From a virus (Duplodnaviria > Caudoviricetes): 38,658 bases of DNA. The position numbers were made by a program, and so were the translations under genes. Below are positions 300 to 27,338 of this stretch, in pieces (the first letter of the stretch is position 1; every line of letters starts with the position of its first letter). The notes beneath the pieces were generated by a model. It saw only the letters and a program-made list of their open reading frames with translations, searched no databases and was not told where the DNA came from. The DNA is taken from the IMG/VR virus record IMGVR_UViG_3300025673_000007, positions 1 to 38,658 of that record. One strand, 5' to 3'.

Positions 300-1160
300 A
301 TGAAATTATATATATCATTTAGCGGGGGAAAAACCTCTGCATTTATGACTAAATGGCTGCTAGACAATAAGCGAGATGATTACAGCGATATTGTTATCTT
401 GTTTGCTAATACAGGACAGGAGAATGAGGAAACACTACGGTTTGTTGATAGGTGTGATAAAGAGTGGGGGTTGGGTGTTGTTTGGGTTGAAGCGGTGATT
501 AATCCAGAGAAAGGAAAGGGAACGCGCCACAGAGTTGTTAATTATGAAACGGCTAGTCGTATCGGTGAACCCTTTGAAGATGTCATTAAGAAATATGGTA
601 TTCCAAATCAAGTGGGGATGTTCTGCACCAGAGAATTGAAGTTAGCACCCATGACTTCATATCTACGAGAATTGGGCTGGAAGAAAGGTGATTATCAGAC
701 AGCAATCGGCATCAGGTTTGATGAAATGGATAGAGTCAGTGCCAACATGGAAAAGAATAATATTATTTACCCTTTGGTTGAGGACATTAAGACAACAAAA
801 GAAATGATAAATGATTATTGGAGAAACCAAAGTTTTACGCTTAACTTGCGTGAGCATGAGGGGAACTGTTCGTGGTGCTATAAAAAGTCATTGAGGAAGT
901 TATTCACCTTGGCTCAAGATACACCAGAGATTTTTGAGTTCCCAATTAGGATGGAAAGACTCTATGGCAAGAATGGTCAGCACTCATTACCAGAAAGCAG
1001 AGTGTTTTTTAGGGAAAGACGGAGTGGCTTGGACATTTTAGAGGAATCTAAAAAGCCGTTCCGCAGATGGGAGGAACCGCGAGAAAGTATGGATATGTTT
1101 GGTTTTGAGATGGAGATGGATTCAGCAAATGGATGCTCAGAAAGTTGTGAGGTGTTCTAG
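300..1160 (+). CDS. PAPS reductase-family (PP-loop) protein with Cys motifs
   Basis: N-terminal ISFSGGKTS PP-loop, FANTGQE, FCTRELK, IGIRFDE, YPL, GNCSWC, C-terminal GCSESC; SD upstream. Confidence 0.85.
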   Translation: MKLYISFSGGKTSAFMTKWLLDNKRDDYSDIVILFANTGQENEETLRFVDRCDKEWGLGVVWVEAVINPEKGKGTRHRVVNYETASRIGEPFEDVIKKYGIPNQVGMFCTRELKLAPMTSYLRELGWKKGDYQTAIGIRFDEMDRVSANMEKNNIIYPLVEDIKTTKEMINDYWRNQSFTLNLREHEGNCSWCYKKSLRKLFTLAQDTPEIFEFPIRMERLYGKNGQHSLPESRVFFRERRSGLDILEESKKPFRRWEEPRESMDMFGFEMEMDSANGCSESCEVF

Positions 1161-5664: not shown

Positions 5665-7782
5665 ATGTACGAAAACCCCGCCGAAGGTGGCATTGAAGAA
5701 GAGCTAGAGGTCATCGAAAATGATGATAAATCGCTCTCAGAAGAAGACCTTCAAGCTATTATCACCTCAGAGATAAGCTCCGCAGTCGATTTCATCGACA
5801 ACACGATTGGCCCAGAACGCGCAAAAGCTACCAAGTATTATAAGGGTGAGAAGTTCGGTAATGAGGAAGATGGCCGCTCTCAGATCGTTTCGCTCGATGT
5901 CAGGGATACGATTGGCGCGATTATGCCTTCTTTAATGCGGATCTTCTTCTCGACCGACAAGGTCGTGGAGTTCGTTCCCCGAAACGCCGAGGATGTCGAG
6001 AAAGCTGAACAGGCAACAGACTATATTAGTTATATATTTTCCCAAGATAACCCAGGGTTCCTGACTTTACAGTCGGCATTCAAGGATGCGCTGGTCAGGA
6101 AAGTTGGAATAATCAAATATTGGTGGGACGAGGATGTTGAAGTCACCACGGAACATTTTAGCGGCCTCAACCCCGAAGCCTTGCAGTATTTGTCTTCGGA
6201 TCCCCAAACCGAGGTCGCTTCCCAAGAACTCGCAATGGAGATGGACGAGTTTGGCAATCCAATAGGAATGCCCTCGATTGAAGCGACGGTCACTCGTAGA
6301 GTGGACAAAGGTCGAGTCAAAGTCGAAGCGGTCCCACCGGAAGAGTTCCTGATCGACCGTGACGCGAAGACGCTGGAAGATGCAACGATTGTTGCTCATC
6401 GGACTACTTTAACGGTTAGCGACTTGGTGGCTAGAGGCTACGAAGAAGAGTTAATTTTAGAACACGCTGGCGATACTGATGTCTTGAACTGGAGCGACGA
6501 ATTAGCTGCACGGCAAGAAACACAGAGCTACGGTCAGGCGACAAGATCTGACGATGCAGCGCGTGAAGTCAGCTACACAGAGAGCTACGTCAAAGCCGAC
6601 ATGGATGGTGATGGAATTGCCGAATTAATCAAAGTTTGCTCCATTGGCCCATCTAATAAAGTGTTGTACTGGGAGCCGGTCGCCGATGTACCTTTCGCTA
6701 CCTTCTGCCCCGACCCAGAACCGCATACGTTCTTTGGAATGTCTGTGGCTGATTCAGTCATGGATATCCAGAAGACTAAGTCTGCTGTTTTACGGAATAT
6801 GTTAGATAGCCTCGCAATGAGTATTCATCCACGAATGGCGATAGTGGAGGGGCAGGTCAACCTGGACGACTGCCTTAACACCGAGGTTGGCAGTTTGATC
6901 CGCCAACGGTCAGCCGGTATGGTCACCCCGTTTGCTATGCCTTTCGTAGGCAAAGAAGCATTTCCAATGATGCAGTATTTGGATGAGTTACGCGAGAACC
7001 GCACCGGTATTTCTAAAGCAGCCGCTGGGTTAGATGCGTCTGCGCTTCAATCCAGCACAGCGTCGGCGGTCAACGCGACCGTCAGTCAGGCGCAACAGCA
7101 CATCGAGATGATCGCTCGTATCTTTGCCGAGACTGGCATGAAACAATTATTCAAAGGGATATTGAAGCTGACCATTAACCACCAGGACGAGGAAAGGATG
7201 ACCCGGTTGAACAACCAGTTTGTCCCAATCGATCCAAGGTCGTGGAATGCTGACATGGATGTTTCTTCAAATATAGCCCTTGGTAAGGGAACAGATACAG
7301 AGCGGATTGCAGCGCTATCGCAGATCGCTGGCAAGCAAGAAGAGCTGATGAAGTTGCTCGGACCAGTGAACGCATTGGTATCACCTAAACAATACAGTCA
7401 TACGCTGGCTAAGATCGTCGAGCTAAGTGGTTTTAAAGATCCCTCGATGTTCATCAACGCGCTACAAGATGGGCAGCCGTTAGTGCCACCAGAAACAGCA
7501 CAGAACAAGAAGAAATCACCAGAGGAATTATTAGCCGAAGTTCAAACGCAAAGCATCCGAGCGGATATAGAAAAAAAGGCCGCTGAATTGCAATTACGCC
7601 GTGACGAAATGTTGAGAAAAGACGATTTGGAACGCGACAAGCTCGATGCTGACATCCATCTTAAAGCCGCAGAGATCCAAGGTAAGCACGGCACCTCAGT
7701 CAATATTGCTCAGATCAAAGCTGACGTAGATCGTGACCGAGAGATGATCAAAGGTATCCAAGCCGGAAGAGGTGTTCGGTAG
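5665..7782 (+). CDS. Portal protein (P22/SU10-like podovirus type)
   Basis: 705 aa after terL; GRSQIVSLDVRDTI, VPPEEFLID, PEPHTFFGMS, C-terminal coiled-coil barrel; TATAAT at ~5626. Confidence 0.93.
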   Translation: MYENPAEGGIEEELEVIENDDKSLSEEDLQAIITSEISSAVDFIDNTIGPERAKATKYYKGEKFGNEEDGRSQIVSLDVRDTIGAIMPSLMRIFFSTDKVVEFVPRNAEDVEKAEQATDYISYIFSQDNPGFLTLQSAFKDALVRKVGIIKYWWDEDVEVTTEHFSGLNPEALQYLSSDPQTEVASQELAMEMDEFGNPIGMPSIEATVTRRVDKGRVKVEAVPPEEFLIDRDAKTLEDATIVAHRTTLTVSDLVARGYEEELILEHAGDTDVLNWSDELAARQETQSYGQATRSDDAAREVSYTESYVKADMDGDGIAELIKVCSIGPSNKVLYWEPVADVPFATFCPDPEPHTFFGMSVADSVMDIQKTKSAVLRNMLDSLAMSIHPRMAIVEGQVNLDDCLNTEVGSLIRQRSAGMVTPFAMPFVGKEAFPMMQYLDELRENRTGISKAAAGLDASALQSSTASAVNATVSQAQQHIEMIARIFAETGMKQLFKGILKLTINHQDEERMTRLNNQFVPIDPRSWNADMDVSSNIALGKGTDTERIAALSQIAGKQEELMKLLGPVNALVSPKQYSHTLAKIVELSGFKDPSMFINALQDGQPLVPPETAQNKKKSPEELLAEVQTQSIRADIEKKAAELQLRRDEMLRKDDLERDKLDADIHLKAAEIQGKHGTSVNIAQIKADVDRDREMIKGIQAGRGVR

Positions 7783-9216
7783 ATGAGACAGGCATGGAGT
7801 GATGCGGTTGGGGGGTATGTTCCAGAATATACGCAGTTTGCCGGTCCGCGCACCTATGATCAGCGGAATGTTCCATCTATGGGACAAGCGCTCCAAGGAT
7901 TGATCAGCGATACGACGCAGAACGCAGAGGCGCTGCTAGACGTTATCGTGCCAAACCAGTACGACTCCCAGGAGAGGGTGACTGAAAAACTGTTAGGGTT
8001 ACTGGGAACTGGGACAGGGGTGGGGCGACTGGAGGCGGGGGGCAGCGCACTAAAGTCTGCGCTTTCGCGGCCCGTCAAAACTAATACACGACCGACAGTG
8101 AGCGGCAAAGCGCACAAAGCATATCCAGGCATCTATAAAGATCCACGGCAGTTGGTTGAAGAGGGTGCGGCTAGGGTCGCGCCTGAGAACAAACTGATGT
8201 CTGATTTTTTTGGTGTTGATAGGTCAGACCTTGATGCTATGACGAGGGCTCAGGAAAAGACCATTAATCAGGTAGATATACCGGTGTGGCCTACGACGCA
8301 GCGGGGAGCGCAACACACTCAAAAAGTAATGAATCCAACCAACGAGGCGCGGCTACAGGATGTCCTATCATTAGCGGGCGATAATCCACAATTCACAGGC
8401 TCATATGGGTGGTATCAGACACTACCATTAAGAGAGAAATACAGATCGGTTCTTGGAAAAGAGCTGGGCGACAAAAGATTTGATGAATTTATGCAGAGTA
8501 GTTCTGTGATGTCGGCTGGATCGCCGGTTGATCTTGAGCTACGTCGAGCATCCCTAGCCGGACTACTTGACGAATCAGGTGAACTGGATAGGTTCATCAA
8601 AGGAAACATGACCAGCGGCGAAAACGTATATAGAGAGTTTCCAGAGCTATTCAAAGATGTGGCAGAGGCCAGTGGTTATGGGCATATTTATCACGCAACA
8701 TCTCACAGGCCAGCGTTAGAACGGTACGCAGCGGGCGATAAATTCTTTAACCAAAAAACCATCTTAGAAGCCCCAAAAACACCAAATTATTACTATTCCA
8801 AGACGGGGGAAAACTTGAGGCACCCGACCCAGGATGCACACTTCGTAAGAGGGATTGGTCTTTCAGATGTTAGACCGATGACGAAGGCGGGAACAGGAGC
8901 ATCAGTTAAGGACACTGAGGCGGGGAAAATCCGCGACTGGTGGACTAACAAAGTATCCGACCCAGTAGGAATGTCTGGATCTCCAGCACAAGCGTTATTG
9001 TGGAACTCCCTAGCGCCGCAGACCGGCGTCAAGACCTTGGTAGGCAAACCACTACTAGAACTCATTACCGACGGAGTGGAACGCGAGGCGCTCAAGCAAG
9101 CCAAGTCGCCACAGCAAGCGCTATTAGATTTTATAAATAGATCTGGGAAGCTGGGGTCTTTCGCGGGGGCTGGGTTATTGGGTCATTCAATGACCGGTGA
9201 CGGAGGGGATATATAG
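7783..9216 (+). CDS. Cargo protein A: shared leader plus putative HhH glycosylase-like (DUF7178-like) domain
   Basis: Starts immediately after the portal stop; first 73 aa are 44/73 identical to the next gene; motifs GWY, MSAGSPV, PKTPNY, TQDAHFVRGIG, QALLW. Confidence 0.6.
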   Translation: MRQAWSDAVGGYVPEYTQFAGPRTYDQRNVPSMGQALQGLISDTTQNAEALLDVIVPNQYDSQERVTEKLLGLLGTGTGVGRLEAGGSALKSALSRPVKTNTRPTVSGKAHKAYPGIYKDPRQLVEEGAARVAPENKLMSDFFGVDRSDLDAMTRAQEKTINQVDIPVWPTTQRGAQHTQKVMNPTNEARLQDVLSLAGDNPQFTGSYGWYQTLPLREKYRSVLGKELGDKRFDEFMQSSSVMSAGSPVDLELRRASLAGLLDESGELDRFIKGNMTSGENVYREFPELFKDVAEASGYGHIYHATSHRPALERYAAGDKFFNQKTILEAPKTPNYYYSKTGENLRHPTQDAHFVRGIGLSDVRPMTKAGTGASVKDTEAGKIRDWWTNKVSDPVGMSGSPAQALLWNSLAPQTGVKTLVGKPLLELITDGVEREALKQAKSPQQALLDFINRSGKLGSFAGAGLLGHSMTGDGGDI

Positions 9217-10517
9217 TGAGAAATGTGTGGAGCGATGCAGTTGGTGGCTATATACCGGAAGATACCCCTTTTCCAAAAGAAAGGATTTATTCTCAGGGTG
9301 GAGCCCCCTCGATGGGCCAAGCGTTTCAAGGTCTTTTGAGCGATACGGCACAGGGCGCTGAAGCGCTGTTTGACCGGATCATTCCAACAATATACGACTC
9401 CCCAGAGAAGATCGCGGAAAAGATGATAAACCTGGAGGGAGCGCAGATAGGTAGAGCTACATTTGGGCAAATGCTTAAGCCTCGTCCCAGCATTTTACCT
9501 TCTGGAGAGACGGCGTACCACACCGCAGAACAAGTGCCTATGCGGGGCGCCGGTCATCTGGGAAGACTGGCAGATGACTCCGAGTTAAATAGAGCGGCCT
9601 TTAGTGCTGAAGCTAACTGGATTGATCCCCGTACGGGACGGGATGTGCTGCTAGAGGGTTTTGGTGTGCCGAGCGGGACGCCCAGGGCTTATCAAGGAGG
9701 ATTTGTTGGAGCCGATAATGTCATGCAGTTTAACCCAGGCCAAGCAAGCCCATCAATACACCCCTCATTTAACAGAGAGGAATCTGATTTAGTGGAAGCG
9801 ATCGCCGCGATAAGAGGTTTAGTTGATGCACAAGAAGGATCTGCGGTACACGCAACTCGCGGGTTACTAAACAGTAACCCTAATATGCTGGGTGTGGACG
9901 TTAGTGTTACGGGGGGCAGACCGGTAACCAGAGATGAATTTGAAAAGATATCTAGGGTTGCTGACAGTCACGGATTCTTCGCAGCGGATCGAGGGAATGG
10001 GACCGTATCATTTATGAATAATGACTACAGTAAGTTGGGCGGGGCAAGATTGAAAGCAGGGGGAGGACTGTTGTCCCAGCAGATGGACCCGACAATGCCC
10101 CTTGGTAAGAATTTGCGTGAATTCGGTGATGAGTTCGACGCTCATAGAGTGGACCGAGAATCTTGGTACATCGACTATTCGGATGCTATGAAAAACCAAG
10201 GTAAAGGACAGGCGACGCGAGACATGATGTCAAAACTATCCAAGGTTAGACCGGCAGCAGAGAACGCGTTAGGTAGTCCGAGGGTTAAGCAAGAGATATT
10301 GAATAAGATTAGTCGTGATGAGAAATGGGCCAAGAAGACCGGTGACGTTACCCGCGACGATATTCAGAACCTACGCAAATTGATGAATGAACCGGGTTCT
10401 GGTAAGGAAACCTATAGCCGGATAATGAAGGCTTTAAAGGATGGAGCAATTGCGCTCCCAGCAGTCATGCTAATGATAGACGGAATGCCAGGAGCGCAAG
10501 ACGATGGACTTATCTAG
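9216..10517 (+). CDS. Cargo protein B: shared leader plus unrecognised domain
   Basis: GTG start overlaps the stop of A; SD GGAGG; paralogous leader. Confidence 0.75.
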   Translation: MRNVWSDAVGGYIPEDTPFPKERIYSQGGAPSMGQAFQGLLSDTAQGAEALFDRIIPTIYDSPEKIAEKMINLEGAQIGRATFGQMLKPRPSILPSGETAYHTAEQVPMRGAGHLGRLADDSELNRAAFSAEANWIDPRTGRDVLLEGFGVPSGTPRAYQGGFVGADNVMQFNPGQASPSIHPSFNREESDLVEAIAAIRGLVDAQEGSAVHATRGLLNSNPNMLGVDVSVTGGRPVTRDEFEKISRVADSHGFFAADRGNGTVSFMNNDYSKLGGARLKAGGGLLSQQMDPTMPLGKNLREFGDEFDAHRVDRESWYIDYSDAMKNQGKGQATRDMMSKLSKVRPAAENALGSPRVKQEILNKISRDEKWAKKTGDVTRDDIQNLRKLMNEPGSGKETYSRIMKALKDGAIALPAVMLMIDGMPGAQDDGLI

Positions 10518-10788
10518 CCTTCCGATACCCAAAAGTGCTAACAACTCCTTGGTTGCGGGCAATAACCTCTTCTTCGGTAACCCCCGGAGGATAGCGGTCA
10601 CCATCCCAAGTCCTTCCACCATTGGGGCCAACCAACCATTTGCCGGTGAAGAGATGAATTTCATTAGTGAAGGTTTTATGCCAATCACCAGGAATAAGGG
10701 TGGCGTCGAGTTCGTGTTCCGTCAAGGCCCGATTAAGACCCTTATGGAAAAGACCGGTGTGGTCAAAGAAGTGCTTGGTTTTGCACAT
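10510..10788 (-). CDS. Antisense small protein convergent on cargo B (candidate immunity/moron)
   Basis: Strong SD AAGGAG a few nt before ATG; own promoter upstream; fills the gap between B and C. Confidence 0.7.
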   Translation of the reverse strand: MCKTKHFFDHTGLFHKGLNRALTEHELDATLIPGDWHKTFTNEIHLFTGKWLVGPNGGRTWDGDRYPPGVTEEEVIARNQGVVSTFGYRKAR

Positions 10789-10863
10789 GGTAAATCTCCT
10801 TTACGTTTTAGCAGATATTTGAGATCGCCTCTGCAAGTAGTAAGTAAATCAGGCGATAAGTTA

Positions 10864-10893
10864 ATGATACACCCAGCCGCTGGGGTATTGCAA
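10864..10893 (-). promoter_or_regulatory. Sigma70-type promoter for the antisense gene
   Basis: TTGCAA-18 bp-TATCAT on the minus strand; spacer is an inverted repeat (CCCAGC-G-GCTGGG). Confidence 0.55.
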
Positions 10894-12279
10894 TGAGTAA
10901 ATCAAAACAACAGATCCGCGATGACCGGCCTCTTAAATAACAACTACTCCCAACGCAAACCACCGTCACTAGGTGAAGCTATGTCAGGTCTGCTGGGCAA
11001 CTGGGGGAGCAACATTGAGCAAGGACTGTTGTCTGCGCTTCCAGTGTTAGCTGAGAATGATCCTTACAAGATAGGGCAACAACTACTGCGCGACGGTGCG
11101 GGGGTTGGCGGGATAGCTTGGCACGGTTCACCTCATAAGTTTACAAGACCTGACCTGTCGAAGATCGGGACCGGTGAAGGAGCGCAAGCGTATGGGCATG
11201 GATTCTATTCTGCCGAGGCGAAGGGTGTTGGTGAAGAATATAGAACTGCGGGGAGTCTGTTACGCCCAGTTCAAGGGTTGCCCACTCATGTAGAGTACGC
11301 TGGCCGTAAAGCCTCAGAACTGGATGACCCTATCGCTAAAGAGGCGTTGGATTTATACAATCTCTTACGCCCTTGGGAGAGTGATCCTAGAAAAGCAGCA
11401 GATATGATCTTCGATACTGCCGAAGATGGATCTAAAGAGTTAATGGCCGGTAAATGGTTAGCTGATAACGCAGATAAAGTATCTATACAGGATTCAACGC
11501 ATCTCTACAAACTCAATATACCAGACGAAACCATCGGCAAGATGTTGGATTGGGATAAGCCTCTTTTCCAGCAATCAGATCAGGTTAAACAGATTTTGGA
11601 TAATACATCCGATCCAGACTCTATACAGAAGAAGATCGATGCACTGCAATCTAGTTTGCAGAAATTCGATGGTGATGATGATTTATTGGGACTCTTTACA
11701 GGGACTGTAAAGACACCTCCGGTAAATCAAAAGATATATAAAGAGATCGAGCGGTTAACAAACGAAAAGCTGCAAGCCGAGAATCTTAGAAATAGGTTAG
11801 CTGAATTTAGAAAAAGAGACAGAGATACTAGAGCTTATCGCCAAGGATCGCTTAAAGGTAAAGATTTTTATAATCATCTCGTAGGGGACAACATCTTGCC
11901 TAAGAAACTCACCCAGAGATTCAACAACAGAGATGAAGCGGTAGAGTTCTTTAAGGCAGAAAAACAAAGATTTAAAGATGCACCGATGTCATTGGGTAAA
12001 GGCACTTATGAGCCGGTAGCAAAATTAGATGGTGATGACTTCACTGTAGAGACTTATGACCAGTTCGGCAAGACTCACGGACAACAGGCCGCATCCGAAT
12101 ACCTCAATTCGCTCGGAATACCAGGCATCAAATACCTCGACGGCAACTCACGCGCAGCCGGTCAGGGATCGCGCAACTTCGTATCGTTCACACCCGATCA
12201 CATCGAGATGTTAGAACGTAACGGTGTGCCGATGAAGGGGTTACTTGGTGAGTAAATCAAAACAACAAATCCGCGACGA
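10894..12279 (+). repeat. 31-bp direct repeat flanking cargo C (10894-10924 and 12249-12279)
   Basis: TGAGTAAATCAAAACAACA(G/A)ATCCGCGA(T/C)GA, 29/31 identical; encodes the MSKSKQQIRD start of the downstream core gene. Confidence 0.9.
10921..12255 (+). CDS. Cargo protein C: ADP-ribosyltransferase-like domain of phage polyvalent proteins (ART-PolyVal-like)
   Basis: AWHGSPHKF...IGTGEGAQAYGHGFYSAE...LYKLNIPD...LDWDKP...LNSLGIPGIKYLD...RNFVSF; short leader YSQRKPPSLGEAMSGLL related to A and B. Confidence 0.7.
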   Translation: MTGLLNNNYSQRKPPSLGEAMSGLLGNWGSNIEQGLLSALPVLAENDPYKIGQQLLRDGAGVGGIAWHGSPHKFTRPDLSKIGTGEGAQAYGHGFYSAEAKGVGEEYRTAGSLLRPVQGLPTHVEYAGRKASELDDPIAKEALDLYNLLRPWESDPRKAADMIFDTAEDGSKELMAGKWLADNADKVSIQDSTHLYKLNIPDETIGKMLDWDKPLFQQSDQVKQILDNTSDPDSIQKKIDALQSSLQKFDGDDDLLGLFTGTVKTPPVNQKIYKEIERLTNEKLQAENLRNRLAEFRKRDRDTRAYRQGSLKGKDFYNHLVGDNILPKKLTQRFNNRDEAVEFFKAEKQRFKDAPMSLGKGTYEPVAKLDGDDFTVETYDQFGKTHGQQAASEYLNSLGIPGIKYLDGNSRAAGQGSRNFVSFTPDHIEMLERNGVPMKGLLGE

Positions 12280-12487
12280 AGGACAGAAGGCAACGACTAT
12301 CGTCGATGATGAGATCTTTAACACCATCGTGGACGAGGTCAAGCATGACCTTTTCCATGAGTGGATGCGAACAGAAGACACCAAGGAAAGAGAAGCACTG
12401 CATGGACTCGCAATCTCGATGGAAGTCATCCTAACGAGACTACGCGCGAAAGCAGATAATTTAACAATTGAAAGGAACACCCAATGA
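12248..12487 (+). CDS. Small head-module protein upstream of scaffold
   Basis: GTG start overlaps the stop of C; helical WxxTxDxxEREAL pattern; ATGA overlap with scaffold. Confidence 0.7.
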   Translation: MSKSKQQIRDEGQKATTIVDDEIFNTIVDEVKHDLFHEWMRTEDTKEREALHGLAISMEVILTRLRAKADNLTIERNTQ

Positions 12488-13509
12488 CAACACCCAACAC
12501 ACCAGATTCTGGAATTGGATTGTACGACGGAGCAGATGCAATATCAAACATGGCCGGCTTAATGGACCCAGAGATGGACACACCAGAAGAGCAAGTCGAA
12601 GCGGTGGCTGATGAAGCATCCGTGACTGACGAAGAACTCGTTTATGAAGCGAGTGAAGAGACAGTCGAGACAGACGAGCAAGATCAAAACCCTGTGGAAG
12701 AAGAAGAGCAACCCGATGTCTATACCGTGCGTGTAAACGGTGAAGATGTCGAGGTCACGTTCGATGAATTAACCAAAGGGTATTCTAGGCAGTCTGATTA
12801 CCAGCGCAAGACTCAGGAAGTCGCCGAGCAACGAAGGGCTGTTGAGAAACAGTATCAAAACGCTCAAGCGCAATTCCAAAAAACACAGCAGATGGAGCAG
12901 CAGTATATTGCGCTACTTCCTCAACTCGAAGCGAAGCTATTGTCTGAACAAGAGGAGCCGATTGATTGGAACGCCGCCTATGAGGCCGATCCGATTGAGG
13001 CCACCCGACTAGAAAGACAGCACCGCGTACATCAAGAGGATAGAGCAAAGAAGTTGCAAGCAATCCAAGCTGAGAAGCAACGACTCATGCAAGAGAATCA
13101 ACAGCGACAACAAGTCCAATATCAACAGCATCTGGCTGATCAGCAGAAATTGTTATTGGAGGCGATCCCTGAGTGGGCCGATGAGAAGGTGCGGGATAAA
13201 GAAGTCGCGGAGGTGAGAAAATGGATGGTCGATAGCGGGAGGTTTACACCTGAACAGGTAAACCAAGTCTCCTTCGCCGGTCACGTTATATCACTTCGTG
13301 AATCTTATCTGTTCACCCTTGGACAAGCGAAAGTGCAAGAAAAGCGTAAAGCGGCCACATCGAAAAAGGGCAAAGCAGTTCGCCCCGGATCGAAAGCTGG
13401 AACGCCAAACGCACAGAGCGCTGCTGTGAAGAACGCCGCCGGTAAATTAAAACAGACCGGGAGCTACCGCGACGCGGCAGATCTCCTAATGAACTTAGAC
13501 CTAGATTAG
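12484..13509 (+). CDS. Capsid scaffolding protein
   Basis: Acidic N-terminus, YTVRVNGEDVEVTFDELTKGYSRQSDYQRKTQEVAE, Q-rich coiled coil; directly before MCP. Confidence 0.88.
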   Translation: MTTPNTPDSGIGLYDGADAISNMAGLMDPEMDTPEEQVEAVADEASVTDEELVYEASEETVETDEQDQNPVEEEEQPDVYTVRVNGEDVEVTFDELTKGYSRQSDYQRKTQEVAEQRRAVEKQYQNAQAQFQKTQQMEQQYIALLPQLEAKLLSEQEEPIDWNAAYEADPIEATRLERQHRVHQEDRAKKLQAIQAEKQRLMQENQQRQQVQYQQHLADQQKLLLEAIPEWADEKVRDKEVAEVRKWMVDSGRFTPEQVNQVSFAGHVISLRESYLFTLGQAKVQEKRKAATSKKGKAVRPGSKAGTPNAQSAAVKNAAGKLKQTGSYRDAADLLMNLDLD

Positions 13510-14514: not shown

Positions 14515-14826
14515 ATGGCAAAACGACTATTAAGCGAAAACCAGATGACCGGCACGAAGACCTATCACGATTACGATGCGTCTAGCGATCAGTCAGTCAT
14601 TACGACATCTGCTGATGTTACAGATATCATCGAGTCGAACAAAGCACAGTACAACGATACTGATGAACGGGCGCGATACAGCGACATAAACAAAGTCGCC
14701 AGTATCCCGATGAACGTCTATTTCGACTTGAAGAAGAAAGGGATTCTGAACGACCAGAAGAAGATGAAAGCCTGGTTGAACGATCCCGACAATCGCTATT
14801 TTCGGACTAGACCTGGAAGAGTGTAA
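14515..14826 (+). CDS. Virion-module protein following MCP
   Basis: VASIP...WLNDPDNRYFRT motif typical of this position in such podoviruses. Confidence 0.75.
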   Translation: MAKRLLSENQMTGTKTYHDYDASSDQSVITTSADVTDIIESNKAQYNDTDERARYSDINKVASIPMNVYFDLKKKGILNDQKKMKAWLNDPDNRYFRTRPGRV

Positions 14827-15443
14827 TGGCAATAACGAATTACGGAGAACTGAAAACAGCAGTCGCCGATTGGCTCAATCGCGACGACCTGACTTCAGTT
14901 ATTCCAACTTTTATCGATCTCGCTCATGCGAAGTTAAATCGCAGATTGCGGGTGCGGGAAATGATACAGCGGTCAACGGCAAGCATCACCGATCAGTTCA
15001 GTAATCTGCCGTCCGACTTCTTAGAACTTAGGAACATTCAACTGAATGTGACGATCCCTAAGTCACTCGAATATGTGACCATCGAGCAGATGGATCAAGA
15101 ACGTGGATTAGGCAATACGGCGAGAGAACCGGTCTATTACACGTTGATGGGATCAACTATAGAGGTTTTTCCGACCCCAGATCAGAGCTATACCCTGGAA
15201 CTCGCGTACTACCAAGACATTCCAACGATGTCGGCAGATACCGATACTAACTGGTTGCTAACCAAAGCACCGGACGTTTATCTTTATGGCGCGCTACTTC
15301 AAGCCGCACCTTACTTGAAAGATGCAGAAGAAACCGGCTTATGGCTACAGGCTCATGACATGGTTGTTGCCGAGTTAGAGAAAGAAGATCTAGGTGCGCG
15401 ATATGGCGCATCGACCTTGAAAGCGAGACATAGGACATACTAA
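14826..15443 (+). CDS. Head-tail adaptor protein
   Basis: ITNYGELKTAVADWLNRDDLT...FIDLA...TNWLLTKAPDVYLYGAL. Confidence 0.85.
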   Translation: MAITNYGELKTAVADWLNRDDLTSVIPTFIDLAHAKLNRRLRVREMIQRSTASITDQFSNLPSDFLELRNIQLNVTIPKSLEYVTIEQMDQERGLGNTAREPVYYTLMGSTIEVFPTPDQSYTLELAYYQDIPTMSADTDTNWLLTKAPDVYLYGALLQAAPYLKDAEETGLWLQAHDMVVAELEKEDLGARYGASTLKARHRTY

Positions 15444-16361
15444 ATGGCTAGAGGTTCGTGGGACGCATCGACTGACACTTGGGCAACGATCACCAGCGGT
15501 GATTGGGACGTTGGCGCTGTTGTCTACGTCGAGAGCATCACCGCAGCGCTCAACACTGGACAGAGTGCATCGCATCAAATCACAACGCCACTTTCGGTGT
15601 CAGCAAGCACCTCGGTGGGATTTTCAGACAGCGTGACAGTCTCAATTCCAGAAAGCATTAGTGACTCAGTTAGTTTAGGACACACAGCAACAGTGGGTCA
15701 GCAGCTTGCCGCTGGCGCGACACTCGCTGGCACCTTTAGCTTCACAGACTCAGCAAGCGCACTTTATCCGACAACAGCAACTGCCACAACCAGTCTGAGT
15801 GTCACACCGGTTGGTAGCGTCGAGATGGCAGAATCGACAGCGCTCTCTGCAACAGTTGAAGCGGATAGTTCTGTGACCAATTTGATGCCGGATAGCGTCA
15901 GTTTATCGAGTTCGGTAACAATGACTGATCAGGCGGGTATGTTGTTGTCGGATGCTATCGCAATGGCACACACCCTGTCCCTCACAGACAGCGCTGCGAT
16001 TGAGGTGAGTGTTTCTGCGGCAATCAGCACCGCATTCTCGACTACGATTACTCCGGCATACCAACTTGCGGGTGTGTCTGATTTTAGTCTATCGCTCGGG
16101 TCGTCGGTTAGCTCAGTCGCTCAACTGAACGCTACGGCGCTCATGCAAATTGACGTTAGCACAGAGTTGCCAGGTGTTGGGTTAGGTTATATCGATGGTG
16201 TTGCTCTAGGGGCCACGCTCGGAATGAATAGCGCTGGCGAATATCTGTGGCAACAATCAGAAGCGCCAGCCGCAACTTCATGGGCAGCGGTTACCCCGCC
16301 GACAGACACCTGGGCAACCGCGCAACACGAATCCCCAACTTGGAGTGCTATAGAAAAATGA
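15444..16361 (+). CDS. Ser/Thr/Ala-rich beta-repeat structural (fibre-like) protein
   Basis: About 12 repeats of ~20 aa, Trp-spaced termini, almost no K/R. Confidence 0.65.
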   Translation: MARGSWDASTDTWATITSGDWDVGAVVYVESITAALNTGQSASHQITTPLSVSASTSVGFSDSVTVSIPESISDSVSLGHTATVGQQLAAGATLAGTFSFTDSASALYPTTATATTSLSVTPVGSVEMAESTALSATVEADSSVTNLMPDSVSLSSSVTMTDQAGMLLSDAIAMAHTLSLTDSAAIEVSVSAAISTAFSTTITPAYQLAGVSDFSLSLGSSVSSVAQLNATALMQIDVSTELPGVGLGYIDGVALGATLGMNSAGEYLWQQSEAPAATSWAAVTPPTDTWATAQHESPTWSAIEK

Positions 16362-16891
16362 TAAAGACAAATACAAAAGTAATCGCCGAAGGAGGCATCA
16401 GAATGAAGAAAGAAAGCAGCATAGGTCTTAATTTAAACAATCGTTGGGCAGTGACCTGTGTGGGTTCTGACGGTGAAGTTAAATGGACTGAAGAGAAAGA
16501 TAATCTAATCACAACTGAGGGATTGAATCACATCCTGGACACTTCGTTCCACGCTGGGACTGCCGTAACGACCTGGTACATTGGGTTGAAAGGCTCAGGG
16601 TCACCCGCAGCGGCAGACACATTAGCTTCGCACAGCACATGGACTGAAGCAGCGGGTTATGCTGGGACACGAAAAGAGTGGACCGAAGGCGCATCCAGCG
16701 CCGGCTCGATGACCAACTCTTCGAGTGTCGATTTCTCGATTAACGCGACTGCAACCATTGCTGGTGCCTTTTTAGCGAGCGCTACATCAGGAACAACCGG
16801 CACGTTATACGGCATCGTAGATTTCACTGCGGCACGTTCTGTTCTGAGCGGCGATACTCTGCAAATTACCGTGACTGTAACAGCAAGCTAA
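16358..16891 (+). CDS. Structural/tail protein
   Basis: NLITTEG...WYIGL...FSINATATIAGAFL...GDTLQITVT; start at 16358 (ATGA overlap) or 16403 (SD GGAGG). Confidence 0.7.
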   Translation: MIKTNTKVIAEGGIRMKKESSIGLNLNNRWAVTCVGSDGEVKWTEEKDNLITTEGLNHILDTSFHAGTAVTTWYIGLKGSGSPAAADTLASHSTWTEAAGYAGTRKEWTEGASSAGSMTNSSSVDFSINATATIAGAFLASATSGTTGTLYGIVDFTAARSVLSGDTLQITVTVTAS

Positions 16892-16900
16892 GAGGACGAT

Positions 16901-18112
16901 ATGGCAACTGAAGACCTAACCGGCACTGATAAGTTTGTTGACGATTTGGTTGCCACAAATCCTGTGGCGACAGACAGCGTTAGCGATGGTGACGAACACA
17001 TTCGGGGAGTGAAGAATGTACTGAAAAATACACTTCCCAATGTGACCGCTGCTGTTACTGCGACCGCTGCTGATTTGAATAAAACATCATCGACTTTCAC
17101 CGGCGCTGATGGTTCTGCTGCCGGTGCGTCGGGGATGGTGACCGCACCGGTCGCAACTGACAATACTAAGTTCTTGAAAGGCGACGGTACTTGGGCAACG
17201 CCCGCCGGTGGCGGCGGGTCATCAACTTTAGGTGGCTTAACCGACGTTGATACAAGCGCTATAACCTTAATCGACGGAGCTGTTCTACGATACAACGGCA
17301 CAGCATCCGAGTGGCAAAATACGAACTTAGGGTTGTCGCTAACGCCGACGGTAACCATACCTTCCACGATATATCCGTCACCCACTACGGTGACTATAAC
17401 AATTACGAATTGGTCGAGTTATTCTTCCCCCGCGCCTTGGTGTGAGGTTGAGAACAGTAGCGGAACGGTGGTTGTTGCGGCCTCTGCTGTCACTAACAAC
17501 GGTGATGGAACAATGACCTTCACTTCTCCAAGCACTGCGGCAACGTATACGCTCAAAGTGAAAGTGCAAGATTTCGGAGATCTCGTTTCATCAACAGTAT
17601 CAACTTCGATGGTGGTCAGTGAGTCTCCATCATATGAATACCGATATTTTAGGATTGGTAGTCTTGGGTCAACAGGTAGTGGGTATTTGGCCGTAGTGGA
17701 GTTTTATACTAGCGCGGGCTTCACTGGAACGTATTACCCACCGGCGATGACATCGAATAGTCAAACCATCGGAGGTGTTACCTACGCTCTCAGTGGTTAT
17801 ACATACAACAATACATCCTATCAGTTATGGAAGATGACTGATACATCTGGCTATGACCCAACAAAAACTGGAGCATGGATGCTTGGGGCATCAGCTACAC
17901 AAAAGAGCGACGGATGGGTGTTCGATCTTGGGACGGCCCGCGACATTGTATCAGCAAGATGCAAGTGGTACACGTACAGTACCCCGAACACCTATCATTC
18001 TTCTCCTTTCACGTTATATGGGTCATCAAATGGTAGTTCGTGGACTTCTATAAATACCGTCACGATGGGTGCGACGAATGATGGTGAATACGTTGATATG
18101 CTACTTGGTTAG
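16901..18112 (+). CDS. Tail fibre/spike with Ig-like and C-terminal discoidin (F5/8)-like domains
   Basis: Anchor TNP...DEHIRGVKNVLK, fibre motifs KFLKGDGTW and LGGLTDV; C-terminal YRYFRI...FDLG...FTLYGSSNGSSWT. Confidence 0.75.
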   Translation: MATEDLTGTDKFVDDLVATNPVATDSVSDGDEHIRGVKNVLKNTLPNVTAAVTATAADLNKTSSTFTGADGSAAGASGMVTAPVATDNTKFLKGDGTWATPAGGGGSSTLGGLTDVDTSAITLIDGAVLRYNGTASEWQNTNLGLSLTPTVTIPSTIYPSPTTVTITITNWSSYSSPAPWCEVENSSGTVVVAASAVTNNGDGTMTFTSPSTAATYTLKVKVQDFGDLVSSTVSTSMVVSESPSYEYRYFRIGSLGSTGSGYLAVVEFYTSAGFTGTYYPPAMTSNSQTIGGVTYALSGYTYNNTSYQLWKMTDTSGYDPTKTGAWMLGASATQKSDGWVFDLGTARDIVSARCKWYTYSTPNTYHSSPFTLYGSSNGSSWTSINTVTMGATNDGEYVDMLLG

Positions 18113-18118
18113 CGGGGA

Positions 18119-18334
18119 ATGATCATGAAAAAAGATTGTGAATTAGAAATATTAAAATATGCCCCTTATTTCCGTCAGTGTAATGCGGCGCTCAGTGGGG
18201 AACATAGTGAATATATCAGTATAGTGTTGAAACTCTTACGAGATCATTATCACTCTCTGATAGAGAGTGGCGAAACTAACTGGTCAGTTACTGATCAAAT
18301 CACAAGCACATTAACCGAAATGAAACCTTATTAG
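18119..18334 (+). CDS. Small protein after fibre (possible fibre chaperone)
   Basis: Position; EILKYAPYFRQCNAAL; lower GC. Confidence 0.5.
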   Translation: MIMKKDCELEILKYAPYFRQCNAALSGEHSEYISIVLKLLRDHYHSLIESGETNWSVTDQITSTLTEMKPY

Positions 18335-18344
18335 GACTTAGACA

Positions 18345-19193
18345 ATGGCCGATACTACAACGACGAATTACACATTCACGAAGCCAGAGGTTGGGTCATC
18401 CAGCAATTCTTGGGGGCAGAAATTAAACAATGACCTCGATTCCATCGATACCACCGTCAAGGCAGTATCGGATGTGGCGAACGCTGCGGTAGTTAAGGCA
18501 GACAACTTATCTGACTTGGCAAGTGCAGCGACCGCCCGAACCAATCTCGGCATAGCGAACCATGAGCTGGTAACGGTAAACGCAGATGGTGATATTTCAA
18601 CGTCTGGTGATATTTCAACGTCTGGATCTGGCGCGATTGACGCAACGAAACTATCGGGTAATCTACCGGCGATTAGTGGGGCTAGTTTGACGGATGTGGC
18701 GCAACTGGCGGGGTCAGCGACACAGGATTTCAGCGCAACCACTGCTACTTCTGGGACTAATACAACACAGGTTGCTACAACTGCTTTTGTTAATGCCGCC
18801 TTAGAAAAGATGTACCCGGTAGGTTCTATATTCACAACAGTTACAGCTTATGCCAACTCAGCAGCAGTGGTGGCAGCTATTGGGGGAACAACATGGACCT
18901 CCTTTGGTGCTGGTAAGGTTCTTGTTGGTGTTGATTCTTCAGATACAGACTTTGATACTGTTGAAGAAACTGGTGGTTCTAAAACTCATACATTATCAAC
19001 ACCAGAAATACCTTCTCACAACCACAGCTTAAGCCCTAGTATTTCGGGTGGTTCTGGAACAGATGGAAACCCTAATATTATATCTGGTGGTTCGAGTACA
19101 GGGGCAGTGAGTATAGGAGCTACTGGCGGTGGCCTCCCGCATAACAACGTACAACCTTACATCACAGTACATATGTGGAAGCGTACCGCTTAA
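18345..19193 (+). CDS. Tail fibre protein with collar/gp10-C-like C-terminus
   Basis: [17 protein letters not shown]...WG anchor; QVATTAFV; YPVGSIF...GKVLVG...GGSKTHTL...PSHNH...[10 protein letters not shown]. Confidence 0.82.
18587..18625 (+). repeat. 18-bp perfect tandem duplication (GDISTS x2)
   Basis: TGGTGATATTTCAACGTC x2 + TGG. Confidence 0.9.
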
Positions 19194-25373: not shown

Positions 25374-26894
25374 ATGAAAGCAGAACATCAACAAGCGTTA
25401 CTATCCGCTTATCGCAAAGCACTAAGTTCTGGTGATGTTGAAATGGCCGCCGAGTTTAAAGGCGCTATCGATGAGATGGTTGGGAGTATGTCCGGCCTTG
25501 AGCAGTTTGGTGCCGGTGCTGCGGTTGGACTAGATAACCTAGTGCGTGGAACGTCTCAGCGGATCGGTGAAGTTTTACCAGAGGTTGTGTCGGAGTCGCT
25601 TGGCTTAAAACCCAAAAAGGGAGAGGTTGAGATTAGGCGAAGATCTCAGGATGCGCTCATGAATACCATTCCAGGCATGGTTGGATCTGTCGTACCAGAG
25701 ATGGTTGCAACTGGCCCCGGCGTTGGTATGAAGGCCGCACTAGGCGCGGGGTCGCTCATGGGATTGCTTCAACCCACCAACGATAACGAGAACCCATTAG
25801 TTAAGTCGGCTATAGGTGCTGCGGGGAGCGCTTTGGGAGAAGGCGCGACTAAACTATTATCGGCACCCTTCAAGTCAGTGCTGAGTCCAGAGCAACGCAT
25901 ACTGGCTAGAAAAGCTGAACAACTTGGAATTAAATTAGACCCCGCTCAGAAGAGTGGTAACCGCGCACTAGGTTATCTTGATTCGGCGTTAGGCGATATG
26001 CCATTCACATCAGGCGGGCAGAAGATAAAGAATGAAACCCAGTACGGTCAAGTGAACAGGGCAATATCTAAGACGTTTGGCGCTGACACTGATAAGTTGA
26101 GTAGCGAGCTATTTCAGAGTCACCAGAAGATAATTGGTGACGAGATGAATGAGATAGCTGGCCGAAACATTATTGATCTGGACGAAGACTTGATTACCGG
26201 ACTGGTGGATACGGTTAAGAAGATCGCTGATGAGAGCATTGATCCGCAGAAACTAAATCTAGTTAAGAACATGACGCGAGAACTTTTGGAAGCACGAAAA
26301 GATGGTGCTATCCCGGGTAGCATTTATCGCAAATTCAATACTAGAATTACCAGAGCGATAGATAAGTATGCGGTATCAGAACCAGATCTAGCACACGATC
26401 TGAAGGCATTGAAAGATGTGGTTGACGAAGGGGCATCCAGAAGTATGGACTCTGTGGATTTGAACAGGTTCGGTGAGTTGCGCGGATTGTACTCTAACCT
26501 TAAAACCGCAGAGCGATCCTTTGACGAAACTAAGGGGGAAGTAGCGCTGCATAAGTTAAGAACTCAAGTTAACAGAGGAAAGGGGCAGTCGGATCTAAAA
26601 GACATAGCGAAGATATCCCATGAGTTTCTACGTCCACCACCAAACTCAGGGACTGCACCAAGGAACGAAGCGATGCGATGGTTAGCCAATCCGCTAACAG
26701 CAGCGGGGGGTTACGCTTTAGATCCAACGGTTGGGATAGGTCTTGGTTCTGGGATAGCGGTATCGTCTGCGCTGCGTAATTTAATGGACCCATCAACCAA
26801 GATGAACGCACTTGGGAGAATGGTTAAGTCGAAGTACCCAAACCAACTACTTTCAAGGAGTGGGTCTGCCGGGTTGCTTGGGTATAGCGAATAG
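25374..26894 (+). CDS. Large ejection/DNA transfer protein
   Basis: Gly/Ala amphipathic segments, PAQKSG, PNSGTAPR; last gene of the virion block. Confidence 0.65.
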   Translation: MKAEHQQALLSAYRKALSSGDVEMAAEFKGAIDEMVGSMSGLEQFGAGAAVGLDNLVRGTSQRIGEVLPEVVSESLGLKPKKGEVEIRRRSQDALMNTIPGMVGSVVPEMVATGPGVGMKAALGAGSLMGLLQPTNDNENPLVKSAIGAAGSALGEGATKLLSAPFKSVLSPEQRILARKAEQLGIKLDPAQKSGNRALGYLDSALGDMPFTSGGQKIKNETQYGQVNRAISKTFGADTDKLSSELFQSHQKIIGDEMNEIAGRNIIDLDEDLITGLVDTVKKIADESIDPQKLNLVKNMTRELLEARKDGAIPGSIYRKFNTRITRAIDKYAVSEPDLAHDLKALKDVVDEGASRSMDSVDLNRFGELRGLYSNLKTAERSFDETKGEVALHKLRTQVNRGKGQSDLKDIAKISHEFLRPPPNSGTAPRNEAMRWLANPLTAAGGYALDPTVGIGLGSGIAVSSALRNLMDPSTKMNALGRMVKSKYPNQLLSRSGSAGLLGYSE

Positions 26895-27338
26895 ATGTTA
26901 GCTGAATTAGCGATAATCAACGCTAGTTTTGAAGTTATAAAAACGGCGCTTGGCAATGGCAAAGAGCTGTTTGAGCTGGGCGATCAGTTAGCGCATTTCA
27001 GCAATGCTGGGCGTGAGATAGACCAGAAAGCGAAGCTGGCTAAGAAAGGCTCAGATCAAGAATCGGATCTTGAGATCTTCATGGCTCAAGAGGCTATGCG
27101 CGTTAAGCGAGAAGAACTCAAGGAATTGATGATCCGAACGCGCCACCTACTTTGGGACGAGTTTCTTCGCTTCGAGGGGCAACAACAACGGGCTAGAGAA
27201 AAGGCAATTAGATTAGAAGAGAAACGCAAAGCTGAGCGAACAGATTTCATCATGACCGCACTTGCTTGGATAGTGGCTTTTCTGATTCTCGCGGGGTCGC
27301 TGTTTGGTGGACTTAAATTAATTATTGGGATGAAGTAA
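26895..27338 (+). CDS. Hypothetical protein with coiled coil and C-terminal TM helix
   Basis: FIMTALAWIVAFLILAGSLFGGL. Confidence 0.7.
   Translation: MLAELAIINASFEVIKTALGNGKELFELGDQLAHFSNAGREIDQKAKLAKKGSDQESDLEIFMAQEAMRVKREELKELMIRTRHLLWDEFLRFEGQQQRAREKAIRLEEKRKAERTDFIMTALAWIVAFLILAGSLFGGLKLIIGMK

Follow-up and report, generated by a model that had tools for sequence, protein, structure and literature searches.

A slot for interchangeable cassettes in a marine podophage head operon: one leader on many enzyme-like bodies, the probable cargo of the procapsid

The DNA analysed here (the window) is a viral record of 38,658 nucleotides (nt), IMGVR_UViG_3300025673_000007, and the system in question is a group of genes, here called A, B, C and D, located directly downstream of the portal gene in its head operon. 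A, B and C begin with related N-terminal leaders and continue into different bodies. The locus is probably a polymorphic cassette slot, where the leader is swapped onto enzyme-like bodies; these likely enter the procapsid, are injected and act in the new host. The slot is organized as follows.

5665..7782, + strand: portal gene, SU10-type (Pfam SU10_portal, E 4e-209; phrog_1216), the 5' anchor of the variable slot
7783..9216, + strand: gene A, 477 amino acids (aa); A/B-type leader (aa 1-79, nt 7783-8019), predicted HhH-glycosylase-fold body and tail
9216..10517, + strand: gene B, 433 aa, GTG start; A/B-type leader (nt 9216-9452, + strand) and uncharacterised domain
10510..10788, - strand: gene D, 92 aa, convergent and antisense, preceded by a ribosome site (AAGGAG, within 10789-10804); its product is a candidate immunity protein for B
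10864..10893, - strand: sigma70-like site TTGCAA-18-TATCAT upstream of D, a consensus match only
10894..10924, + strand: copy 1 of a 31-nt direct repeat, a duplicated start of the 80-aa gene and a scar flanking C
10921..12255, + strand: gene C, 444 aa; C-type leader (aa 1-66, three GLL), ADP-ribosyltransferase (ART)-like body and C-terminal GLL
12245..12487, + strand: conserved 80-aa head gene (phrog_8161), the 3' anchor of the slot; carries copy 2 of the repeat (12249-12279)

The portal stop (7782) adjoins the start of A (7783) directly. The original prediction, made from the letters of the window, described three coupled genes of 430-480 aa between portal and scaffold. The sizes (477, 433 and 444 aa, all on the + strand) and the position downstream of the portal were as described. 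B and C are not coupled, however, but separated by a 403-nt gap with the minus-strand D gene, and the gene that directly follows C is not the scaffold but the conserved 80-aa phrog_8161 gene. Taken as a whole, the observations of the prediction were confirmed in part and its interpretation was partly supported.

A and B aligned without gaps at their N-termini (46/79 identical, E 1e-26), and no second significant alignment between A and B was found. Residues 1-73 were identical at 44 of 73 positions, the value originally given, and the many synonymous DNA changes noted at that time amount to 16 of the 43 identical codons, start codon omitted. The ratio of nonsynonymous to synonymous differences (pN/pS) was 0.40 for the A/B leader and had a median of 0.16 over 36 pairs of C-type leaders; the leader is under purifying selection at the protein level. 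The core motif was present in the C leader as claimed, relating it to the A/B leader, and one profile matched the leaders of A, B and C at E<=2e-27, all three being members of that profile. The leader is 66-79 aa long, with amphipathic helical stretches (hydrophobic moment 0.54-0.70) and a Gly-rich end, and contains no segment of transmembrane strength (best 19-residue hydropathy 0.35-0.56). In agreement with the original prediction, no MuF domain (MuF1 PF04233, MuF2 PF06152) was detected in the full proteins or the leaders by Pfam at E<=0.1-1, PHROGs or NCBIfam. The leader matched no other Pfam family either, and its profile matched no ejection or core protein. The profile recovered 36 proteins among 7,996 scored candidates, and an exhaustive leader search gave 22 representatives, 15 of which were real after reading. 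The remaining seven (P0055, P0057-P0062) were weak profile matches that on reading proved to be unrelated repetitive or cellular proteins and were dropped. Judged from these searches the leader is confined to this phage lineage, and tandem shared N-termini were seen in none of 123 other A- or B-type loci. One 118-aa protein, P0053, lacks a body and combines an A/B leader and a portion of a C leader with a C tail; either a cassette has collapsed here or the assembly is at fault.

Scanning for the portal yielded 38 loci, of which 34 were examined downstream and four ending inside the portal were left out. In relatives with portals 84-96% identical to that of the window the slot holds 0-2 genes, compared with three leader genes in the window. 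The full interval from portal to 80-aa gene was present in nine distinct genomes (the window and eight relatives) and had nine different contents, in spite of slot-flanking DNA that is 72-92% identical. The relatives carried the following.

L004: empty slot
L005 (same in L006 and L007): LPD23-type body and PF26151-bearing body
L008: unknown body and a leaderless gene
L010: 201-aa protein with no leader, GLL near both ends
L011: divergent leader with unknown body
L013: ART-like body alone
L014 and L015: DUF7178 plus B, with D
L017: LPD23-type and ART-like bodies

The leader was expected to occur on many unrelated C-termini at this locus. Classed by the domain after the leader, 44 leader proteins (longer than 150 aa, near-copies of the window's own included) fell into 12 unrelated body classes, so the leader is not always attached to the same bodies, and in the Pfam, PHROG and NCBIfam scans it matched no described family such as MuF. 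The named classes are ART-like, LPD23, PBECR5 (E 7e-18), DUF7178, GNAT-like (below threshold) and ParB-like; LPD23 was above threshold in three relatives and ART-PolyVal below it (E 4e-5). Leaders on different body classes were up to 63/63, 62/63 and 61/63 identical, with the likeness ending at residue 63-73, which points to recent swaps of the body. Every leader match with usable context was located in the slot between portal and 80-aa gene. In the C-leader search, all eight loci on viral contigs were contigs already known at this slot, and among five metagenome loci three showed the slot and two were too short. The C-terminal tails are modular as well: ART-like and LPD23 bodies alike are extended, after an internal GLL, by one and the same additional domain (P0015, P0023, P0016, P0007, L008:2450-3412), and in the same set an ART-type tail terminates a PBECR5 protein. 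The leaderless slot gene at L008:3409-4206 is PAPS-reductase-like by eye.

Scans of the 38.7-kb record with Pfam and PHROGs identified, besides the SU10-type portal, genes for the scaffold, the major capsid protein and the adaptor. They also found two genes with an annotation as DNA ejection proteins, and genes for a tyrosine integrase (E 1e-17) and a CI-like repressor. By this gene content, the source is assigned to the temperate podophages of the SU10/LUZ24-like group. The nearest annotated portals were 45-48% identical (Sinorhizobium phage phiM5 and spring metagenome records). Of 24 listed runs, four were compared with the region, all from sediment and marine metagenomes, and the other 20 carry no weight as to habitat; contigs from RNA libraries (X5) did not demonstrate its transcription. 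A close prophage was sought for host assignment and none was found, only one 22-residue match turning up.

The body of A (about aa 100-460) was modelled with AlphaFold2 from an alignment of 71 homologs, giving a pLDDT score of 88.8, compared with 34 for a single-sequence model. The best match of the model was the T. maritima 8-oxoguanine glycosylase (3n0u), with a VIA Z of 10.2, a root-mean-square deviation of 3.8, 186 aligned residues and 13% identity. HhH-type proteins took the top 23 VIA rows, and all 18 rows at Z>=5 were of this fold type. For helical proteins VIA sets its threshold at about 13, above the Z of 10.2 obtained here, and Foldseek with the model against the PDB returned nothing at E<=0.001. 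Lys332 and Asp351, 19 residues apart, were invariant in 71/71 A homologs, a spacing in keeping with the about 18-19 residues of bifunctional glycosylase/lyases (hOGG1, EndoIII). From the predicted structure, A has an HhH glycosylase/lyase fold with the Lys/Asp pair intact, which fits the glycosylase-like body first proposed for it. None of the 71 family members had a Pfam match, A and B matched nothing among annotated phages, and no usable match came from searching PDB sequences with profiles of A, B or C. The Atlas neighbours of A were DUF7178 clusters (score 0.93). Joined to other N-termini, A-type domains are widespread in the head and ejection regions of phages (79 loci), and in L041 such a domain is fused to an SLT domain within the ejection-gene region. 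In A-type proteins of another lineage (31 loci, a subset of L054-L116) the motif x-x-x-G-G-x-V/T was enriched, often near the C-terminus, with 60 occurrences in 28,787 aa against 36 in 72,399; it is a possible alternative loading motif.

The domain of B (about aa 98-420) received no assignment in Pfam, PHROG, NCBIfam, PDB or Atlas, and the body therefore stays without a family, as it was in the original prediction. A host open reading frame (ORF) was obtained for 46 of 47 further B-type loci, and in 39 of the 46 a DUF7178-like domain was located directly N-terminal to B; in L059 and L136 a stand-alone B follows an A-type gene. Because B usually follows an HhH-like domain, A and B look, from their sequences, like the two halves of a single HhH-plus-partner unit, each half now a gene with a leader. 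The payloads were predicted to be interchangeable, and the bodies are indeed swapped, but B is not an independent payload, being the usual partner of an HhH domain. This HhH-plus-B module is uncharacterised and widespread, and has immunity-like partners.

One such candidate partner is D, in the gap between B and C (10788->10510, minus strand). Compared with its L014 homolog, 31/64 differences were at codon position 3 and pN/pS was 0.45. A 130-aa plus-strand ORF opposite to D (10504-10896) was rejected as a protein gene, with a nearly neutral pN/pS of 0.87 and differences at codon position 1. This shadow ORF, uninterrupted in the window (130 aa) and also in L014 (154-155 aa), begins within the end of B and has a stop that overlaps the ATG at the 80-aa gene start. 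It may serve to maintain ribosome coupling past the antisense gene, or its register may be free of stops by chance. Sigma70-like sites in the region were not above chance (4 compared with 5.9 in shuffles). No relatives of D were found by pattern scan or among annotated phages, the L014 contig being the sole match among the fetched loci. A complex prediction for B and D scored 0.00 with D's own fold uncertain, and weighs neither way. In run X2, D and the DNA upstream of it (window 10484-10919) were ~13-15x deeper than the rest of the cassette.

A convergent ORF of 40-130 aa with a ribosome site was found after 17/28 distinct B-type genes, compared with 5/63 A-type genes and 8/276 other long genes in those loci. 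Nine of these convergent ORFs form one protein family (leave-one-out E 4e-7 to 5e-12). Six of the 11 B-type misses belong to a lineage with a co-directional small downstream gene, by eye similar to the convergent genes of L171-L173, and another small family follows B-type genes in either orientation. The arrangement of convergent genes after B is immunity-like. No small partner gene was present after the ART, LPD23, GNAT-like and PBECR5 cassettes, which adjoin the next gene.

C matched phrog_873 (E 6e-10) and was 34% identical over 184 aa to gp5 of Sulfitobacter phage phiGT1 (E 2e-19). Residues H68, Y96 and D407 were invariant in 11 close homologs, as seen in sequence only; ART-PolyVal and Tox-ART-HYD2 proteins carry a His in strand 1, a Tyr in strand 2 and an Asp in strand 5. 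The PHROG match, sub-threshold ART-PolyVal matches in relatives and the invariant His68/Tyr96 suggest that the body is ART-like, in line with the original prediction. The 31-nt repeats flanking C (10894-10924 and 12249-12279) are 94% identical, and the start of C lies inside the duplicated piece of the 80-aa gene. A joint lacking C (10893->12249) was present in contigs of two of the four runs.

A short motif, GL[LI], is repeated in the leader proteins. A, B and C hold four copies each, including one in the tail of A (aa 464), the GLI that ends B and a C-terminal GLL in C (aa 440). GLL also occurs twice in each of two window genes of the ejection region, and the other 34 window ORFs tested had one GLI only. 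The genes outside the slot that bear on this are as follows.

12484..13509, + strand: scaffolding protein (phrog_3927, E 1e-44); proposed partner of the leader/GLL by inference from phage P22
23450..24202, + strand: ejection-region protein, 250 aa, GLL at aa 130 and 238; ejection role by position only
25374..26894, + strand: DNA ejection protein, 506 aa (phrog_26400, E 6e-31), GLL at aa 130 and 500

In 12 representative bodies, two of which share domain B, GL[LI] was found 28 times against 3.7 expected, and it was within the last 17 aa in 34/40 leader proteins. In six other phages, 25 ejection-region proteins had 20 GLL against 8.3 expected (P 4e-4), while 116 other proteins had 13 against 12.6; a terminal GLL was present in 7/25 and 1/116, respectively. 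Over all ejection-class proteins GLL occurred 24 times and its permutations LGL and LLG 9 and 15 times. The GLL of the leaders is encoded by 25 distinct codon triplets of 43, which argues for a motif of the protein. Gp28 of phiM5, annotated as detected in particles, ends in KGLL. GLL is a candidate loading signal, and the sequence pattern suggests that the signal may be this short motif, at both ends of the cargo and in ejection proteins, rather than the 66-79-aa leader alone. Several scaffolds of the group end in a leucine pair (GKLL, ERLL, EGLLD), so that GLL might be a mimic of the end by which the scaffold itself binds the coat, rather than a ligand of the scaffold. The literature searched, in which subscription papers are poorly covered so that absence from print is not established, gave no description of the leader, the GLL motif or DUF7178.

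In a second lineage, A-type and DUF7178-plus-B bodies share a leader peculiar to that lineage (48% over 86 aa). The two leaders are unrelated (hhalign probability 0.5%), and the design of a leader on varied bodies recurs while the signal itself is lineage-specific. The second leader (L049, L051-L053, L064, L067, L144-L169) contains a hydrophobic hairpin, has no Pfam match and is encoded near the terminase.

Evidence from virions is available for the C homolog phiGT1 gp5, encoded at the same site, between portal and the small gene before the scaffold. In Table S3 of PMC10386132, gp5 is listed with 12 spectra and a ratio of spectral count to molecular weight (SC/MW) of 0.29, compared with 0.67 for the 12-copy portal. 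By analogy the bodies of the slot are likely head cargo that reaches the next host by injection, and the slot is a probable new loading route for phage-delivered effectors. The cassettes would most likely be late genes. The leader, probably via its GLL and together with the C-terminal GLL, would bind the scaffold or an inner head component as ejection proteins do. According to the passages available from PMC8402733, loading of the P22 ejection proteins requires the scaffold and not the portal, through their N-terminal parts, and the scaffold is for that reason the best guess for the partner of the leader. A portal partner is possible too, since in the structure of Pa223, from a related group, the ejection protein is placed around the portal, as far as the accessible text describes it (10.1101/2025.06.11.659172). 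The cargo would leave the head together with the ejection proteins and be active ahead of phage gene expression, C by ADP-ribosylating a host target, and A, as a glycosylase/apurinic-apyrimidinic lyase, jointly with B on DNA. D, which would be expressed from the opposite strand independently of the late operon, would neutralise B in the lysogen or the producer cell. Payloads could be exchanged through recombination events that fall in the leader at the 5' side and, at the 3' side, in shared tails or the 80-aa gene. A further and tentative proposal, which is rather doubtful at present, is that GLL, repeated in a lineage-specific leader and at the C-terminus, is a scaffold-binding address code of ejection proteins and cargo in SU10/LUZ24-like podophages, and that the slot supplies plug-and-play injected enzymes including an undescribed two-part DNA-attacking toxin (HhH glycosylase/lyase plus B) checked by an antisense immunity protein.

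A number of observations weigh against these proposals. Non-structural proteins reach SC/MW values of 0.15-0.18 in the same phiGT1 table (PMC10386132), so that gp5 is only modestly above them. In phiGT1, gp5 begins with another N-terminus, and GLL is absent from gp5 and gp4 alike; as gp5 is packaged nonetheless, neither leader nor GLL is needed for packaging such cargo. The GLL motif was picked post hoc, and the ejection class was set by position after the data had been seen. Its enrichment was singly significant in 2/7 genomes, and most A-type hosts in other lineages lack it. The C-terminal Gly codon was GGA or GGG in 17/18 cases and may double as the ribosome site of the next gene. The cargo appears dispensable, since the slot is empty in 18 distant relatives (portal 33-56%) and in L004. 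C had no Pfam match above threshold (DUF3990, E 0.04) and none to an ART family, and it has no obvious Shine-Dalgarno or ribosome site in this genome, so that its expression may be weak. The 28 B loci represent about ten lineages and hence are not independent of each other. D resembles the antisense family weakly (10/1000 shuffles were as high), and the L014 D gave no signal. In run X2, D-like DNA had a depth of 93-107 against about 7, with foreign flanks, which means that D-like genes are frequent in other genomes and also exist without B, as would be expected of an orphan immunity gene or an independent moron.

The cargo could be protective instead, with A and B repairing or shielding the incoming phage DNA (for example from oxidative lesions acquired in seawater), the other bodies serving anti-defence without toxicity, and D being an unrelated moron. 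The solved folds nearest to A are 8-oxoguanine glycosylases with Lys and Asp 19 apart, the ART, LPD23, GNAT-like and PBECR5 cassettes have no small partner gene, and D is found elsewhere without B. A common fold reveals no substrate, however, and with convergent small genes after B-type genes far above controls and a quick turnover of 12 payload classes that suits conflict better than housekeeping, a protective function was considered unlikely. The leader might also be mainly a translation or recombination module, coupling to the portal stop and providing a homology arm, with the proteins remaining unpackaged in the cytoplasm late in infection. The leader genes do begin right after the portal stop or in 4-nt overlaps, the codons of the C-terminal GLL overlap sequence resembling a ribosome site, and swaps terminate at the leader edge. 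Still, conservation of the protein over 66-79 aa (pN/pS 0.16-0.40) far exceeds what coupling needs, GLL has many codons and recurs internally, and the syntenic homolog phiGT1 gp5 is in virions, leaving this explanation improbable.

It is very improbable that the leader serves to decorate the head surface or the portal vertex with the proteins, or acts only after ejection in membrane passage, with loading by another element. Amphipathic helices and a Gly-rich end are what membrane-active ejection proteins might have, and phiGT1 gp5 is packaged with another N-terminus, but the leader lacks a segment of transmembrane strength, and the targets of the payloads (DNA, NAD+-dependent modification, RNA) are cytoplasmic, contrary to surface display. 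Loading into the head followed by injection is accordingly kept as the preferred interpretation, and the system is a MuF-independent variant of the phage polymorphic/polyvalent effector systems.

As described in the available parts of PMC5576092, MuF toxins are likewise encoded directly after the portal in temperate phages, combine a constant N-terminus with a variable C-terminal enzyme, have a small downstream ORF as presumed immunity gene, and are proposed to be delivered at DNA injection. In contrast to them, the window leader has no MuF1 or MuF2 domain, is 66-79 aa long and is lineage-restricted; several leader genes stand in tandem, most payloads have no partner gene, and the partner of B is convergent. 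MuF is found most often in siphophages according to the same parts of that paper (PMC5576092), while the window represents a podophage that has ejection proteins. A constant N-terminus with diverse C-termini, here 12 classes in 44 proteins, is shared with polymorphic toxins. The polyvalent proteins, as far as presented in the accessible text of PMC5512222, draw on the same pool of domains (ART with H-Y-D signature, LPD, PBECR, metallopeptidase-like, ParB-like), occur in a portal-terminase context and are predicted to be packaged and injected. They differ in having 2-15 domains per chain, compared with mostly one payload per gene with its own leader copy here; each window gene has one body, and at least two effector domains per chain are found only in some relatives (L014, P0015, P0023). 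The leader and the A/B pair are not covered in the parts of PMC5512222 available, and the word 'glycosylase' has 0 occurrences in its main text.

Phage phiGT1 gp5 is similar to C as an ART-like homolog detected in virions and encoded between portal and small gene, and differs in its other N-terminus and lack of GLL; the available passages of PMC10386132 list it under 'head module' and not as an effector. T4 internal proteins, with their capsid targeting sequence, and P22 ejection proteins, compared by description from passages of PMC8402733, also have N-terminal parts that direct loading, ten N-terminal residues of T4 IpIII being enough to load fusions. The candidate signal of the window differs from theirs in being repeated and also C-terminal. 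With the HhH-GPD glycosylases (3n0u) the A model shares the fold and the Lys/Asp pair, differing in 13% identity, large insertions, a phage head-operon context and a partner domain. The choice of head-loaded proteins by podophages is poorly defined, and the P22 passages of PMC8402733 name no sequence signal. A naturally transplanted 66-aa leader and a candidate three-residue motif could be used to tag proteins for loading into podophage heads, and the slot extends phage-delivered polymorphic effectors beyond MuF.

Some further observations were made outside the slot. No maturation protease gene was identified in the head module of the window. The adaptor-to-fibre genes (window 14826-19193) exist in at least three alternative versions among close relatives and form a second variable region. 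Over C and the head genes the contig L120 is almost the same as the window, but it skips the intervening tail and ejection genes, due to either rearrangement or misassembly; at L120:7446-7889 it carries a copy of the 147-aa gene of window 26895-27338, directly after the 71-aa gene (window 18119-18334). Finally, a gene with a PAPS-reductase domain (Pfam E 1e-6) is located at window 300-1160 and possibly has a function in DNA modification.

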